Origin: Escherichia phage vB_EcoM-E33 | DNA: 64,000 nt | Sequence record: OL780484.1 | Reading direction: 5' to 3' (one strand) | In this document: one piece after another, positions 22,765 through 56,177 of the stretch | Numbering within the stretch: position 1 is the first letter of the stretch | Layout: each line of letters begins with the position of its first letter | Made by a program: the position numbers and the translations under genes | The notes under the pieces: model-generated | Seen by the model: the letters and a program-made list of their open reading frames with translations, nothing else | What the model was told of the DNA's origin: nothing | The model's database searches: none

Positions 22765-22794
22765 GTTTACTTTCCTGGATAGCCGTGATACTAT
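22765..22794 (+). promoter_or_regulatory. early promoter cassette (GTTTAC, 18 nt, TACTAT)
   Basis: -35 GTTTAC 22765-22770, -10 TACTAT 22789-22794, followed by the conserved block agccctatcaaaaca. Confidence 0.6.
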
Positions 22795-22830
22795 AGCCCT
22801 ATCAAAACAAATGAGTGATTGGAGAATAAA

Positions 22831-23016
22831 ATGAAACGTTGTGAATTAATTAGAAATGTTACTGCACTGGCCGCTGTTACCGCTTTTGGCTTTAGTATGT
22901 TTGCAGGATTCATGCTCGATATGCTTTCAACTTCCGAGAATATAATCTCTTTAGTAGTGGCATTTTTAATTGGTTCAATTTCTTTTGTTATGGATAAAAT
23001 CTCTAAAGGTGAGTAA
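22831..23016 (+). CDS. small hydrophobic (membrane) protein
   Basis: ATG 22831 after SD ggag; MKRCELI...; two hydrophobic stretches; ORF-track TTG start at 22819 rejected. Confidence 0.55.
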   Translation: MKRCELIRNVTALAAVTAFGFSMFAGFMLDMLSTSENIISLVVAFLIGSISFVMDKISKGE

Positions 23017-23017
23017 A

Positions 23018-23398
23018 ATGTATAAAGTGTATGCAGATTATCAGGCAAATCCATCTGAAAAACCAGATTGTCAAATTGGGTGGGCACACGACACCCTGCT
23101 TGAGGCGGTAGATAAAGCCCAGGAATTAGGGTATAGTTATGTGGATATTGTTCAACCCAATGGGTCCGTTATTACACTTGAAGAATTCAAGAATATCAAA
23201 ACAAACTTTTTGCTCTTTGCGGGTGATAACTATTACCCTCGTGGCGGTTATGCCGACTTAATCGCAAAGGCCGCTACTGAAGATGAACTGCGCGATATCA
23301 TTAAAGAAAATGAGAATAACCCTCTTTACGGTTCCAATCGTTTTGACTGGTGGCAGATTGTTAATGCTAATACCCATACTATTGTAGACGAGGGTTAA
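23018..23398 (+). CDS. hypothetical protein
   Basis: ATG 23018 two nt after the previous stop with SD ggtgag; 126 aa. Confidence 0.55.
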   Translation: MYKVYADYQANPSEKPDCQIGWAHDTLLEAVDKAQELGYSYVDIVQPNGSVITLEEFKNIKTNFLLFAGDNYYPRGGYADLIAKAATEDELRDIIKENENNPLYGSNRFDWWQIVNANTHTIVDEG

Positions 23399-23689
23399 AT
23401 GCTATACGTTAAGGTTACTAATCCAGAGAATGGCTATAATTCAGACCAGGTTGCAGCAGAGCTACTGATTCGCAACTTTGGCAAAGGTGCTGTGCTTGAT
23501 GTCCAACAGGTTAATATTGGTCGTAGTTCAAGCGACGTTAAACTAAAAGTTAATGGTCGCCGTTATAATTCTGTTAACTTTACTTTCTACACCGCAACTG
23601 AAAACGGATTGATCGAATACGACATCTTTAAAAATCCTTTGAAGATTGCTTCTATTAAACTTGATTACATTAATATGTGGCCACAATGA
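23399..23689 (+). CDS. hypothetical protein
   Basis: ATG directly follows the upstream stop (TAAATG); 96 aa. Confidence 0.55.
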   Translation: MLYVKVTNPENGYNSDQVAAELLIRNFGKGAVLDVQQVNIGRSSSDVKLKVNGRRYNSVNFTFYTATENGLIEYDIFKNPLKIASIKLDYINMWPQ

Positions 23690-23863
23690 ATCAAATTTGA
23701 CCAGACTATTCCTAAAAATAGTAATATGCTTTAAGAGTAATGTGTTATTATTACTCTATCATTAATACCCTCTATTACCAAAGGTTCTTCCCTCAAAGAA
23801 CCTTTCATAATAGACAAGGTCTATTAATCAAACTTACTTTACTTAATTTTATTTGAGGTGTTT

Positions 23864-24130
23864 ATGTTAGTATTAAAATTAGCTTTTTACGACCCAGAAA
23901 CCAAGACAACAACTACCAAACGTTGTTCTATTTCATATGAATGTCAATTTGGCGAAGTTGAGACTGATGGCGAGCCCTTTATGGCAATTGCCGATAGCAC
24001 ATTCGCTAAACCAAAAATAATTCCACTAGTTAACGCTGCGGCTTATCTGGTTGCTCCTGAAGAAATGACTTATCATACAATTCAGCACATGGCTAAAGAT
24101 GATAATGCTCCTGCTGGATTTGTAGTTTGA
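23864..24130 (+). CDS. hypothetical protein
   Basis: ATG 23864 preceded by SD gaggtg; ORF-track GTG start at 23858 less likely; 88 aa. Confidence 0.5.
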   Translation: MLVLKLAFYDPETKTTTTKRCSISYECQFGEVETDGEPFMAIADSTFAKPKIIPLVNAAAYLVAPEEMTYHTIQHMAKDDNAPAGFVV

Positions 24131-24135
24131 TTTAA

Positions 24136-24212
24136 GGCCCTGTAGCTCAATGGTTAGCAGCAGTCCCCTCATAAGGGAAAGGTTACCAGTTCAAATCTGG
24201 TCTGGGTCACCA
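24136..24212 (+). tRNA. tRNA with CAU anticodon (Met, or Ile2 if lysidine-modified), CCA encoded
   Basis: T-arm accag-ttcaaat-ctggt, acceptor ggccctg/ctgggtc (one U-U mispair), anticodon loop ctCATaa, 3' aCCA; D-stem has a mismatch. Confidence 0.55.
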
Positions 24213-24217
24213 ACTAC

Positions 24218-24292
24218 GTCCCGCTGGTGTAATGGATAGCATACGATCCTTCTAAGTTTGCGGTCCTGGTTCGATCCCAGGGCGGGATACCA
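24218..24292 (+). tRNA. tRNA-Arg (anticodon UCU), CCA encoded
   Basis: Acceptor gtcccgc/gcgggat, T-arm cctgg-ttcgatc-ccagg, anticodon loop ctTCTaa, 3' aCCA; T4 also encodes tRNA-Arg(UCU). Confidence 0.75.
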
Positions 24293-24531
24293 AATGAAGA
24301 CTATTATATAGTCAAGCCGTCGTATGAAGACTGATTACCAGCATTCACCGGCGCAACAAACAAGAAACCGGGTCGCTACCGGTAAGTCGTCGGACTGATG
24401 TTCCCTGAGTAAGGACTGGCATTAACAAATCTTTACGATCTGTTAACGTCCCCTTACATCACAGCAGAAACGGCGCACCGAATTATCGATTCGAGGAAAT
24501 ATCTTTGCCGTAAGCCGAGTAGCGTTTTTGA

Positions 24532-54334: not shown

Positions 54335-54585
54335 GTCTGAAATTACATTCAATGAAAAATATCATTACCCTTAATCTGGATGATGAGCGCCTGATTTTTC
54401 TCACCGTCACTGATAAGAATATTGAAATTGCAAATGGTCCTAAGACTTATTGTTGCCCAGTGAAGAATTGGAAACATGTAACCTTTTTGACCCTGTGCGA
54501 CCGTCTGAAAGATATTAAGTTAGATTTGGATGTCAAAGATGTCCAATACATTAAAAATCTTATTGGATACAAACTGCTGAGGTAA
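54331..54585 (+). CDS. hypothetical protein
   Basis: ATGA overlap; 84 aa. Confidence 0.45.
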   Translation: MSLKLHSMKNIITLNLDDERLIFLTVTDKNIEIANGPKTYCCPVKNWKHVTFLTLCDRLKDIKLDLDVKDVQYIKNLIGYKLLR

Positions 54586-54587
54586 CT

Positions 54588-54881
54588 ATGGGTAAAACTA
54601 TTCGTCGTAAAGAATTGTCTGTAAAAGATTTTTATTATTCCGGACGTCGTAAAGCACCTGACGGCGTAAGTCAGGAACTGGTTGAAGAAAATATATTCCG
54701 TTCCGACAAGTGGAAACGTATGCGCGGTGTTGATTCTGAAGTTAAGAATGAAATGAATCGCCAACTTCGTAAAGAAGTGAGAAAGCTGAAAAAAGATGTT
54801 TACAACGACGATGAACCTGATTACAATACTTCTCATCGAGTTGCAAAACGTAAATCAAACGAATGTTATCGTTATAGCTGA
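54588..54881 (+). CDS. basic hypothetical protein
   Basis: 97 aa, Arg/Lys-rich. Confidence 0.45.
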   Translation: MGKTIRRKELSVKDFYYSGRRKAPDGVSQELVEENIFRSDKWKRMRGVDSEVKNEMNRQLRKEVRKLKKDVYNDDEPDYNTSHRVAKRKSNECYRYS

Positions 54882-54888
54882 GGAAAAT

Positions 54889-55020
54889 ATGAATATCAAA
54901 CGAATGCTTTTTAAGCAAGGACTATACACTTTAAATGTTAGTCCAAAGGGCGATACAACCACGTGGTCAGTAAATGACTGGATTAAATTCATTGATAAAC
55001 ACGGAAACTGGAAAATTTAA
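54889..55020 (+). CDS. small hypothetical protein
   Basis: ATG 54889 after SD gaggaa; 43 aa; ORF-track start 54796. Confidence 0.4.
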   Translation: MNIKRMLFKQGLYTLNVSPKGDTTTWSVNDWIKFIDKHGNWKI

Positions 55021-55221
55021 ATGAATCCTGAATCTAAATTATCACAGCGAATTGCTGAAGCTCGTCGTCAGTTCTTTGAAAATATGATAGCCCAAGGTAT
55101 TGATGACGAAGTTTTTCTGAACTGGTTTTGGAACCACAAATATTCAAGTTGTTCAGGCGCTTTATTAATTTCAGCTGCATCTATGTACGAAGGCTGGAAA
55201 GGTGCAATGAGTCAAAAATAG
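55021..55221 (+). CDS. hypothetical protein
   Basis: 66 aa. Confidence 0.45.
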   Translation: MNPESKLSQRIAEARRQFFENMIAQGIDDEVFLNWFWNHKYSSCSGALLISAASMYEGWKGAMSQK

Positions 55222-55250
55222 TTTACAAACTCTTGGGACCAGAGTATAAT
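55221..55250 (+). promoter_or_regulatory. early promoter inside stem-loop
   Basis: GTTTAC 55221-55226 (overlaps the upstream stop), 18 nt, TATAAT 55245-55250; gggacca / tggtcc repeat flanks the -10. Confidence 0.6.
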
Positions 55251-55289
55251 GGTCCTACGGATTATAACTTTAAAACTGAGGAAATTATT

Positions 55290-55619
55290 ATGTCACAAGC
55301 TATTAAAAACGTACTGAACTCTTTCGCTTTCGATAAAGTAAACGAACTGATGAAAACAGGTTTTGTAACTCCTCAGGTTCTTGACCAATGGGTTGCTGAA
55401 CTGTTACCAATCATGCACTCTAAAGACCAGAAAATTGGTAAGAACGGTATTCGTGAAATCCTGGTTCAATATATCCTTGATGAATTCGATGTCGCTGCCT
55501 TTGGTGTTGAATCCAAAGCTTGGTGCCCTGGCGAAATCACGGATAAAACTATCCGTCGTATGAAAAACCAACGTAAGAAAAAATTCGTTGACCTGAAAAT
55601 TGTTAAGGCAGCGAAATGA
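55290..55619 (+). CDS. hypothetical protein
   Basis: ATG 55290 after SD gagga; ORF-track start 55128 would include the promoter. Confidence 0.5.
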   Translation: MSQAIKNVLNSFAFDKVNELMKTGFVTPQVLDQWVAELLPIMHSKDQKIGKNGIREILVQYILDEFDVAAFGVESKAWCPGEITDKTIRRMKNQRKKKFVDLKIVKAAK

Positions 55620-55882
55620 TTAAAATAAAACTCTCTAATTACGATAAAAACTTGGAAATGATTGCTATGAAAGAAGAACTCTTGAATGATGTCCGCTTTA
55701 CCGGTTATGCAGTTCAATTTAATGGTGATGGGGCTCTCCAGATTGAGGGTGACCACTTCATCATCGAATACGAATTTAAACAGTACTGGCTTTATGCGAA
55801 GGACGAAGTTGGTGGTGTTGATTACGTCGACGAGTTCGATAACCTGGATGATGCCTTAGAAGGAGCTCGATTCCTACAATGA
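55616..55882 (+). CDS. hypothetical protein
   Basis: ATGA overlap; 88 aa. Confidence 0.45.
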   Translation: MIKIKLSNYDKNLEMIAMKEELLNDVRFTGYAVQFNGDGALQIEGDHFIIEYEFKQYWLYAKDEVGGVDYVDEFDNLDDALEGARFLQ

Positions 55883-56142
55883 AACCCATATCCACCACCC
55901 TCGCCTACGAAGGTCTCGGATTTTTCTTAATAGATAACTGTATGGATGTTGAGTTTGTTTGTGGTGAGACTTCTTTAGTATGGAAGTCTCATATTTCCAA
56001 ATACAACCATCGCGAATATCCAAGTCTTTTTAAAGAATTTTGTGGATATATGTCTGAACACGGGTGTACTGATACAATTTCTTATTCCGAGTTCACACAA
56101 ATCCTTGAAACAGTATTTCAGGCTTATTGCTTACTCCGTTGA
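55879..56142 (+). CDS. hypothetical protein
   Basis: ATGA overlap; 87 aa. Confidence 0.45.
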   Translation: MKPISTTLAYEGLGFFLIDNCMDVEFVCGETSLVWKSHISKYNHREYPSLFKEFCGYMSEHGCTDTISYSEFTQILETVFQAYCLLR

Positions 56143-56177
56143 TGCTTTAAAAGGGTCTTCAAATACTATGATATAAT
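56143..56177 (+). promoter_or_regulatory. promoter-like cassette (MotA-box-like TGCTTTA and TATAAT)
   Basis: gaTGCTTTA 56141-56149; TATAAT 56172-56177 followed by agacctatga (degenerate copy of the conserved block); no GTTTAC. Confidence 0.4.

Follow-up and report, generated by a model that had tools for sequence, protein, structure and literature searches.

The 64,000-nucleotide stretch of Escherichia phage vB_EcoM-E33 (OL780484.1), here called the window, contains 17 copies of a short early-promoter cassette, which stand before unrelated genes. In four of these, located in front of denV, regB, nrdC.8 and 55.6, the promoter is probably combined with an RNA helix that hides the Shine-Dalgarno sequence (SD) on transcripts coming from further upstream. 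Judged from its sequence, the window is of the Dhakavirus-type (JS98/JS10/QL01) of T4-like phages, and the nucleotide identity of the studied region to the Dhakaviruses QL01, WG01, JS10, IME341 and ABTNLS3 is 92-98%. Following the JS10 annotation, the gene order between 20 and 58 kb is 3/1/57A, tRNAs, e, denV, regB, vs, tk and rI, continued by mobD and the nrdC.x genes, nrdH, the 55.x genes and 55, all on the + strand. This segment makes up the early, hyperplastic arm classically found in T4-type genomes, and the cassette region within it, from trna.4 to 55.2, is packed with small open reading frames (ORFs) that differ between relatives. Two tRNA genes at 24136-24289 (Rfam RF00005, 53.9 and 48.8 bits) represent the tRNA cluster expected between the trna.x ORFs and the e.x genes. 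They were the only matches in an Rfam search, which found no family over any cassette.

The strict pattern GTTTAC-N16-19-TAYWAT occurs 13 times in the window, compared to 0.36 occurrences expected, and exclusively on the + strand. A sequence-only reading of the window had listed 16 promoter copies, and each of them carries a -35-like hexamer (GTTTAC in 11, GTGTAC in two, ATTTAC in one and ATGTAC/TGTACA in one), a spacer of 17-18 nt and a -10 box of the form TAnnnT, followed by an SD and an ATG 18-42 nt past the predicted start. A looser scan added one further cassette at 34755; neither the - strand nor the sequence outside 22.7-55.3 kb contained comparable sites. All 17 sites combine a GTTTAC-like -35 hexamer, a spacer of 17±1 nt and a TAnnnT box, and all stand upstream of an SD and an ATG. 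An A is found 7 nt past the -10 box in 15 of them and is the predicted transcription start (+1). The block TAYTATAGMCCTATCAA, comprising -10 box, discriminator and start, occurs nine times against 0.02 expected. The TACTAT-type copies display the TG of an extended -10 element (TGn), and the 25 nt upstream of the cassettes are 52-88% A+T. The copy at 51780 is doubtful on sequence grounds, because it has neither an AT-rich upstream region nor the common leader. A match at 54798 was not counted, as it is located inside ORF 54588-54881.

T4 early promoters are of the UP/-35/TGn/-10 type (Hinton 2010, PMC2988021). The repeats resemble them in the AT-rich UP region, the -35, TGn and -10 elements, the location before prereplicative genes and the single orientation, and they are best regarded as putative T4-type early promoters for the host sigma-70 RNA polymerase, with predicted activity and start sites. 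In contrast to T4 early promoters, identity among nine copies extends to the discriminator and the first transcribed bases (AGMCCTATCAA), and four share their whole leader, which goes beyond the known promoter requirement. The earlier suggestion that several copies have a common leader was borne out by these four (22765, 25859, 31136 and 45423), in which about 30 nt up to the ATG are common. Their leaders (22801-22830, 25894-25922, 31171-31201 and 45458-45488) end in GGAGAAUAAAA or a close variant; GGAGAAUAAAA matches exactly the published RegB/S1 cleavage consensus GGAGRAYARAA, and early mRNAs of this family therefore look built for RegB cutting. The regB loci of T4-like phages show the same GTTTAC..TACTAT..ATCAAC layout. 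The T4 regB promoter has been described as a typical early promoter and the RegB protein appears early.

Each cassette was folded from the -35 element to the ATG and compared with dinucleotide shuffles. Six of the 17 fold better than their shuffles (26190, 31136, 34294, 37105, 46823 and 54094; z -2.8 to -6.2), while the others show no excess folding (z above -1.5). Some inverted repeat is present in about 9-11 cassettes, in line with the proposal that at least nine copies are nested in stem-loops, but only these six exceed the shuffled background. In four of the six, the 5' arm is located in the promoter spacer, the -10 box and the predicted +1 lie in a loop of 22-25 nt, and the 3' arm covers the SD:

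34294..34352, + strand: denV cassette, SD-mask type (-35 34294-99, -10 34317-22, predicted +1 34329, ATG 34350; z -6.2)
34300..34310, + strand: denV mask, 5' arm ATCTCCTGTAG, in the promoter spacer
34334..34344, + strand: denV mask, 3' arm CTACAGGAGAT, including the SD GGAG
37105..37164, + strand: regB cassette, SD-mask type (-10 37128-33, predicted +1 37140, ATG 37162; z -3.8)
37111..37121, + strand: regB mask, 5' arm ATCTCCTGTAG
37145..37155, + strand: regB mask, 3' arm CTACAGGAGAT, on the SD
46823..46880, + strand: nrdC.8 cassette, SD-mask type (-10 46846-51, predicted +1 46858, ATG 46878; z -5.3)
46829..46839, + strand: nrdC.8 mask, 5' arm ATCTCCAGTAG, with a T to A change relative to the denV/regB arm
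46863..46873, + strand: nrdC.8 mask, 3' arm CTACTGGAGGT, on the SD, with the compensating change
54094..54154, + strand: 55.6 cassette, SD-mask type (-35 ATTTAC, -10 TATAGT 54117-22, ATG 54152; z -5.7)
54104..54117, + strand: 55.6 mask, 5' arm TCTCCTCACGTGTT, from the spacer through the first base of the -10 box
54133..54146, + strand: 55.6 mask, 3' arm AACACATGAGGAGA, on the SD

The regB cassette is near-identical to the denV cassette, and at nrdC.8 a T:A pair of the denV/regB arms has become A:T. The assertion of the sequence-only reading that the 3' arm usually overlaps the SD holds robustly for these four cassettes, is marginal for 29849 and unsupported for 41012. In 26190, 26647, 31136 and 55221 the 3' arm lies on the -10 box or discriminator, off the SD, and "usually" was an overstatement.

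The strength of the masks was estimated as the free energy required to open positions -14 to +3 around the start codon, in RNAs beginning at the predicted +1 and in read-through RNAs that contain an additional 60-65 nt of upstream sequence. The predicted opening cost increases from 2.5 kcal/mol in the own transcript to 10.6 kcal/mol in the read-through RNA for denV, from 1.7 to 12.8 kcal/mol for regB, from 2.6 to 18.6 kcal/mol for nrdC.8, and from 2.7 to 15.3 kcal/mol for 55.6. Only 0-3 of 200 shuffled upstream segments reach these read-through values, and placing the upstream parts of the other 16 promoters in front of the four masked genes results in medians of 2.6-6.1 kcal/mol. Cassette 29849 is marginal, and the other twelve shift by at most 2.1 kcal/mol; at 25859 and 26190, 194-197 of 200 shuffles even occlude the SD more strongly than the native upstream sequence does. 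Because the 5' arms are located between the -35 and -10 elements, any start from the embedded promoter excludes the 5' arm, whatever the exact +1.

The lysozyme gene e of the window served as a positive control. Its predicted opening cost is 12-15 kcal/mol in the long RNA and 5.3 kcal/mol in the short RNA. In this classical T4 arrangement, the arms AATACCTCC (33388-96) and, at the SD, GGAGGTATT (33405-13) pair with each other, and the first of them shares bases with the late promoter TATAAATA (33384-91). The four cassette masks are in the same range of predicted cost as the e mask, and the corresponding structure in T4 is reported to reduce lysozyme synthesis about 100-fold (PMC3014915). The late promoter TATAAATA was seen only at gene e (33384), and the promoters nested in the four masks are of the early sigma-70 type. 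The proposal that a gene's own transcript frees the SD while read-through transcripts hide it thus appears valid for four, perhaps five, of the 17 cassettes, as judged by folding energetics, shuffle and swap controls and strong covariation among relatives; the other hairpins are of a different type.

Cassette orthologues were compared in JS10, ABTNLS3 and ESCO10 (Dhakavirus) and in VR20 and VR25 (Gaprivervirus), and denV and regB loci were taken from IMG/VR. The denV arms are kept in ESCO10 despite a differing -10 box and discriminator. ABTNLS3 uses a wholly different pair, AGTGTTCTC at the end of the -10 box and in the discriminator with GAGAACACT at the SD. For 55.6, three 5'-arm changes in ESCO10 all keep or repair the pairing. 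Among 36 distinct denV upstream regions from IMG/VR, 31 contain a GTTTAC-type promoter, and 30 of these 31 are masked, defined as a difference in opening cost (ddG) of at least 5, with a median ddG of 12.8. At least five unrelated arm sequences are used for this. In some lineages the denV 5' arm resides in the spacer (ATCTCCGTTTG/CAAACGGAGAT, TTCCTCCAAG/CTTGGAGGAA, TTCTCCTGTAGATG/CATCTACAGGAGAA and others), in others on the -10 end and discriminator (GATGTCTTCC/GGAGGACATC and others). Masks of regB, built from different arms, are present in Dhakavirus (ddG 11-12.6), in Gaprivervirus, where the pair is TTATGATTATC/GATAATCATG (ddG 9.6-12.2), and in a further lineage (L020) with a pair of 15 bp (ddG 14.6-18.4).

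Covariation was analysed separately for the two positions of the 5' arm, in sequences that are related to one another. In the discriminator class, 92% of the cells are paired compared to 84% in shuffles (reached by 0 of 500) and 41-61% in slid controls, and five of ten pairs contain double changes (five compensated pairs). For the spacer-arm class of denV promoters, MAFFT combined with RNAalifold did not find a structure because the arms were misaligned, and an alignment anchored on the CTCC/GGAG core was used instead. In this alignment 88% of the cells are paired compared to 70% in shuffles (0 of 500), the covariation score is 0.46 against 0.15 in shuffles and at most 0.14 in slid controls, and 34 cells are doubly changed against 13. 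Beyond the CTCC/GGAG core, contiguous pairing extends over 3.9 bp with the own partner but only 0.9 bp with foreign partners. The excess of G-U cells (13) over A-C cells (4) favours pairing in the sense RNA over pairing in DNA or on the antisense strand. For nrdC.8 and 55.6, covariation is thin because the search for related loci returned Dhaka- and Gapriverviruses only.

An exact-pattern scan of IMG/VR for GTTTACATCTCCNGTAG mostly retrieved unrelated contigs, and only the Dhakavirus matches were of use. QL01 contains a fourth copy of the denV/regB-type 5' half (GTTTACATCTCCTGTAG...ATCAAC; L139, position 5574, minus strand), which stands behind a terminator and is joined to a non-complementary SD half (CTTGGAGAAC). 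From its sequence, this orphan arm seems to have arisen by recombination within the loop. As a separate observation, the 75 nt upstream of denV in jumbo phages (L052-L054 and L059; contigs of 345-378 kb) contain TTGAC-type promoters with the -35 element enclosed by a GGG...CCC hairpin and a T-run behind it, which makes them terminator/promoter composites as in RB49 and not masks.

These data probably reflect a Dhakavirus version of early-promoter cassettes of the promoter-early stem-loop (PeSL) family, four of which carry an anti-SD mask that confines expression to the gene's own early transcript. This reading is built on observations of the motif, which exceeds chance, of fold energies and covariation, and of hybrid junctions in relatives (see below), from which promoter activity, start sites and the effect on translation are inferred. 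The cassette would be a unit of about 60-80 bp consisting of an AT-rich upstream region, the -35 element GTTTAC, TGn, the -10 box TAYWAT, an A as predicted +1, a short leader and the SD. It would stand before early genes of the hyperplastic region, and recombination between copies would insert, delete or swap the flanked genes. The cassettes would further carry devices that face transcription from upstream: a terminator in front of the promoter in three, a hairpin enclosing the -10 box in four, and an anti-SD arm in the spacer in another four. A read-through RNA containing both arms would fold into a helix of 11-14 bp that buries the SD and leaves the cistron untranslated, while transcription would continue past the helix into the downstream genes. 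An RNA from the embedded promoter would begin within the loop, lack the 5' arm and be translated. A masked gene could then be expressed only from its own early promoter, independently of its context and restricted to the early period, and RNAs from upstream early, middle or late promoters would pass the cistron silently. The late e transcript, for example, could run into denV, since the terminator scan detected no terminator between the two genes. Behind regB, nrdC.8 and 55.6, the genes of the next 1-4 kb lack promoter cassettes of their own, which provides a reason to mask rather than to terminate.

The other cassettes and the terminators associated with them are:

22725..22744, + strand: canonical intrinsic terminator (hairpin and T-run), directly upstream of cassette 22765
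22765..22833, + strand: cassette before the trna.4-like ORF, terminator-then-promoter type, shared leader, no SD masking (ddG 0.7)
25859..25925, + strand: cassette with shared leader, no significant hairpin; 5' parent of the JS10 hybrid cassette
26190..26247, + strand: cassette with -10-enclosing hairpin (arms 26196-26208 / 26215-27, upstream of the predicted +1; z -5.5); 3' parent of the JS10 hybrid
26647..26722, + strand: cassette before e.6 with -10-enclosing hairpin GAGGACA/TGTCCTC (26661-67 / 26676-82)
29848..29907, + strand: cassette 29849 with degenerate -35 (ATGTAC); SD masking marginal, from 4.4 to 8.0 kcal/mol, reached by 20 of 200 shuffles
31136..31204, + strand: cassette with -10-enclosing hairpin AGGTCTATAG/CTATAGACCT (31143-52 / 31161-70; z -2.8) and shared leader
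34755..34811, + strand: extra cassette, ATTTAC-N18-TAGAAT with ..CTATCAAC leader, no mask
40974..40999, + strand: canonical terminator shortly upstream of cassette 41012, with a stem of 11 bp, a TTCG loop and a T-run
41012..41071, + strand: cassette of terminator-then-promoter type; ATCCTC/GAGGAG pairing no better than shuffles
45047..45064, + strand: canonical terminator, just upstream of cassette 45089
45089..45168, + strand: cassette of terminator-then-promoter type; 5' parent of the ABTNLS3 hybrid
45423..45491, + strand: cassette before nrdC.10 with GTGTAC and shared leader; 3' parent of the ABTNLS3 hybrid
49399..49457, + strand: cassette before nrdC.4, no mask; the spacer contains the whole of a small hairpin, CATCCA/TGGATG
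51780..51858, + strand: doubtful copy, GTTTAC-N18-TATAAT; among the relatives compared present in ABTNLS3 only
55221..55292, + strand: cassette before 55.2 with -10-enclosing hairpin TGGGACCA/TGGTCCTA (55234-41 / 55250-57), no mask

The stem-loop is wholly upstream of the predicted +1 in eight cassettes: the three with upstream terminators (22765, 41012 and 45089), the four with -10-enclosing hairpins (26190, 26647, 31136 and 55221) and the one with a spacer hairpin. The four masking cassettes have a 3' arm downstream of +1, and four to five cassettes are without a significant stem-loop. In the terminator group, a GC stem with a T-run precedes the -35 element by 10-20 nt, and there is no internal hairpin. 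In the -10-enclosing group, neither arm reaches +1 or touches the SD. The hairpin at the e.6 promoter is kept by compensatory changes in relatives (GAGGAC/GTCCTC, GAGGGC/GCCCTC and GGGAACAT/ATGTTCCC), which were seen in ESCO10 and VR20; the -10-enclosing hairpins of the window span 26196-26227, 26661-26682, 31143-31170 and 55234-55257. Two further candidates were rejected as masks, namely 41012 (z -0.1, occlusion no better than in shuffles) and 25859 with its TTTACTCT/AGAGTAAA pair (ddG 0.1). The co-occurrence of terminators and masks across six genomes gave a raw table of 3 / 24 / 11 / 65, which is descriptive only, with too few independent groups; the three cases with both represent one weak hairpin inside nrdH.

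Two relatives contain hybrid cassettes that, by their sequence, show recombination inside cassettes. JS10 lacks the window ORF 25923-26186 and has a single cassette in place of two, which corresponds to cassette 25859 through GAAGGAGAG and to cassette 26190 from CATAATG on, with the junction at GGAGA. ABTNLS3 lacks ORF 45166-45420, and its hybrid follows 45089 through the TG before the -10 box and then 45423. The upstream half of cassette 22765 is unlike that of the three Dhakavirus orthologues (JS10, ABTNLS3 and ESCO10), with the switch between -35 and -10. Across five relatives, 43 of 180 homology breakpoints (24%) are within 30 nt of a cassette compared to 6.2% at random, although this enrichment is inflated by the shared ancestry of the relatives and by the generally lower conservation of intergenic DNA.

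Descriptions of PeSLs exist for RB49/phi1 and, from later work, for T4/PST and KVP40/nt-1 (Arbiol et al. 2010, PMC2839356; Comeau et al. 2014, PMC4122927). Five positions of the stem-loop were distinguished, namely upstream of -35, over -35, within the spacer, over -10 and immediately before +1; all of these end before the transcription start, and the structure was read as a terminator or attenuator. JS98 is mentioned in these papers only in passing, for 'PeSL-like sequences' near g43 (PMC2839356, PMC4122927). The window cassettes share with PeSLs the repeated arrangement of early promoter, SD and ATG, in part with a stem-loop, in intergenic spaces of the hyperplastic region, and a promoter that fits the T4/PST consensus TTTACW-N17-TAYWAT. 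As in PeSLs, crossovers inside the cassette delete or insert the flanked ORF, and the published exchanges, with crossovers between -10 and ATG, are matched by the JS10 and ABTNLS3 events. Three cassettes have a terminator just upstream of the promoter, as in PST, and four a hairpin over the -10 box, as in phi1. The differences concern the genus, Dhakavirus, and the four masks, the 3' arm of which is downstream of +1 on the SD, outside the five published positions, and the role of which is likely translational rather than terminating. Since the published stem-loop is a terminator wholly upstream of +1, the masking cassettes do not fit the PeSL anatomy. The resemblance to PeSLs, which the sequence-only reading had pointed out, is thus well founded for the family, its promoter consensus and the junctions in relatives, but does not extend to the masks.

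Counterparts of the masks are found at T4 e, soc, 49 and I-TevI, in which the SD/AUG is masked and a late promoter is used, such that long transcripts are silent and proximal ones are translated (Uzan & Miller 2010, PMC3014915). In both cases the SD/AUG is paired, within a helix, to a 5' strand from upstream of the start site used by the gene-proximal promoter, and the predicted stability is equal (12-15 kcal/mol for the e mask of the window). The pairing of the window masks is conserved by compensatory changes in related phages. The T4 masks, however, nest a late (gp55, TATAAATA) promoter and delay expression until late, whereas the window masks nest an early sigma-70 promoter, with the anti-SD arm in the 17-nt spacer or the discriminator, and would confine expression to the gene's own early transcript. 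The masks listed in the review by Uzan and Miller (PMC3014915) include neither denV, regB, nrdC.8 and 55.6 nor any early promoter, and a full-text literature search found no description of early-promoter masks at denV or regB, with an earlier mention in older T4 papers being possible. The cassette family is therefore a known one, here in a new genus, while the combination of an early promoter with a mask, which T4-like phages conserve at denV and regB, is apparently a so far undescribed form of the known T4 translational mask.

As proposed for the PeSLs of RB49/phi1, the stem-loops could be terminators or attenuators of upstream transcripts, with an incidental overlap of the SD. One RB49 PeSL stem-loop lowers the expression of a downstream lacZ about as much as rrnB T1 (Arbiol et al., PMC2839356), and Gapriverviruses have -35-enclosing GGGG/CCCC hairpins with T-runs (55.6) or -10-enclosing hairpins (nrdC.8) at the same genes, which also suggests that the devices are interchangeable. 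In the window, real terminators precede three other cassettes (22765, 41012 and 45089), unlike the mask cassettes. No internal cassette hairpin was flagged in the terminator scan, and the four masks and the four -10-enclosing hairpins lack a U-tract. The mask loops are 22-25 nt long, and in dozens of lineages the 3' arm is always on the SD/AUG, irrespective of the arm sequence and of the place of the 5' arm, which is needless for a terminator. Termination would also deprive the genes behind regB, nrdC.8 and 55.6 of their read-through supply, and this explanation of the masks is improbable. A protective role against RegB, although still unlikely, has slightly more in its favour. The helix would then mainly hide an internal GGAG from RegB, and from follow-up cleavage by RNase E/G, to preserve the polycistronic RNA, with silencing as a secondary effect. 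RegB cleavage at GGAG takes place in early SD regions and is prevented by secondary structure; of the RNAs with a GGAG, most middle and all late ones are refractory to it, and so is, in vivo, the GGAG of T4 denV. The window encodes regB, the SD of regB itself is among the masked ones, and the unmasked leader family ends in the exact RegB/S1 consensus match. The resistance of T4 denV was, however, ascribed to the GGAG's 3' flanking sequence, and grafting an A-rich tail made the GGAG cleavable in vivo. A shield of this kind predicts the same structure as translational masking, and the two roles are compatible.

Translational coupling, in which the SD on the read-through RNA opens only when a ribosome finishes the upstream ORF, would suit the compact layout, as the upstream stop codons directly precede the -35 element, 6-11 nt from the 5' arm. 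A ribosome at a stop codon reaches only a few nt beyond it and would cover at most the first base or two of the 11-14-bp arm, and in the discriminator class of denV masks the 5' arm is about 30 nt past the stop, which makes coupling very improbable. Hardly any weight falls on the least probable option, a role in DNA (a cruciform or hairpin substrate, or a protein-binding palindrome, serving cassette recombination or promoter control) or a by-product of cassette duplication and of a pyrimidine-rich spacer that complements any GGAG. Cassettes do recombine, the denV and regB cassettes are near-identical copies, the spacer CTCC pairs with any GGAG, and an orphan arm exists in QL01. The pairing of arms with their own partners nevertheless extends well beyond the CTCC/GGAG core (3.9 against 0.9 contiguous bp). 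The arms co-vary without conservation of their sequence, so that they do not constitute a protein-binding site. The 13 G-U against 4 A-C cells agree better with RNA of the sense strand than with duplex DNA, cruciforms are unlikely to extrude with loops of 22-25 nt, and the 3' arm stays tied to the SD even when the 5' arm shifts from the spacer to the discriminator.

Several points weigh against an anti-SD mask that confines expression to the own early transcript. Promoter activity, +1 positions and effects on translation are all predicted for the window phage, and since only four of the 17 cassettes have a mask, the family as a whole is not explained by it. The T4-type regB mask is weak (ddG 2.9-6.2), RB69-like regB loci are not masked (ddG 0.2), and nrdC.8 of JS10 carries a disrupting G-to-T change. 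In the spacer-class alignment (A5), which was set by hand on the CTCC/GGAG core, orthologous cassettes stand alongside paralogous ones, and the breakpoint count overstates the enrichment for the reasons given above. The orphan 5' arm of QL01, without a matching SD arm, implies that arms can be retained even when they serve no function. The helix might also be opened in part by ribosomes that terminate at the upstream stop codon, which lies 6-11 nt ahead of the 5' arm. On balance, the repeat noted in the sequence-only reading is genuine and not due to chance, and the interpretation given to it there is partly supported: it was right in kind and valid for a quarter of the copies, with its functional statements standing as predictions.

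A broader and more tentative proposal is that the early-gene cassettes of T4-like phages carry interchangeable 'insulators', which free the expression of a shuffled gene from its location, and that the anti-SD form is an ancient, selected and undescribed feature of denV and regB across Tevenvirinae. One form of insulator would be a terminator; the other would be an anti-SD arm in the promoter's own spacer or discriminator, which would silence one cistron on upstream transcripts, perhaps shield its GGAG from RegB, and let transcription run on. If the masks work as predicted, this would explain how some genes of T4-like phages, notably those of the RegB nuclease and the DenV repair enzyme, are restricted to their own early transcripts within long early, middle and late read-through RNAs. 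The PeSL model of modular gene shuffling would gain insulation at the level of translation, and the masks would show that information for the RNA level can reside in the 'free' spacer of a sigma-70 promoter. For synthetic biology, they would offer a compact portable part of about 60 bp, combining a promoter with a self-insulating ribosome-binding site.

Two ORFs of the cassette region distinguish the window from several relatives. ORF 43078-43842 (254 aa), located in the mobD/nrdC.11 neighbourhood, is without a Pfam match; it corresponds to 771 bp that are cleanly inserted in comparison with each of the five relatives, and may be a mobile gene. ORF 52071-53144 (357 aa) contains a SegE-type GIY-YIG homing-endonuclease domain (PF19835, E 9.5e-34) and occupies the place of gene 49 (endonuclease VII) in JS10, ESCO10, VR20 and VR25. 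A gp49-like remnant of 13 residues is retained at its C-terminus, with no further gp49 copy in the window, and ABTNLS3 shows the same arrangement at this site.

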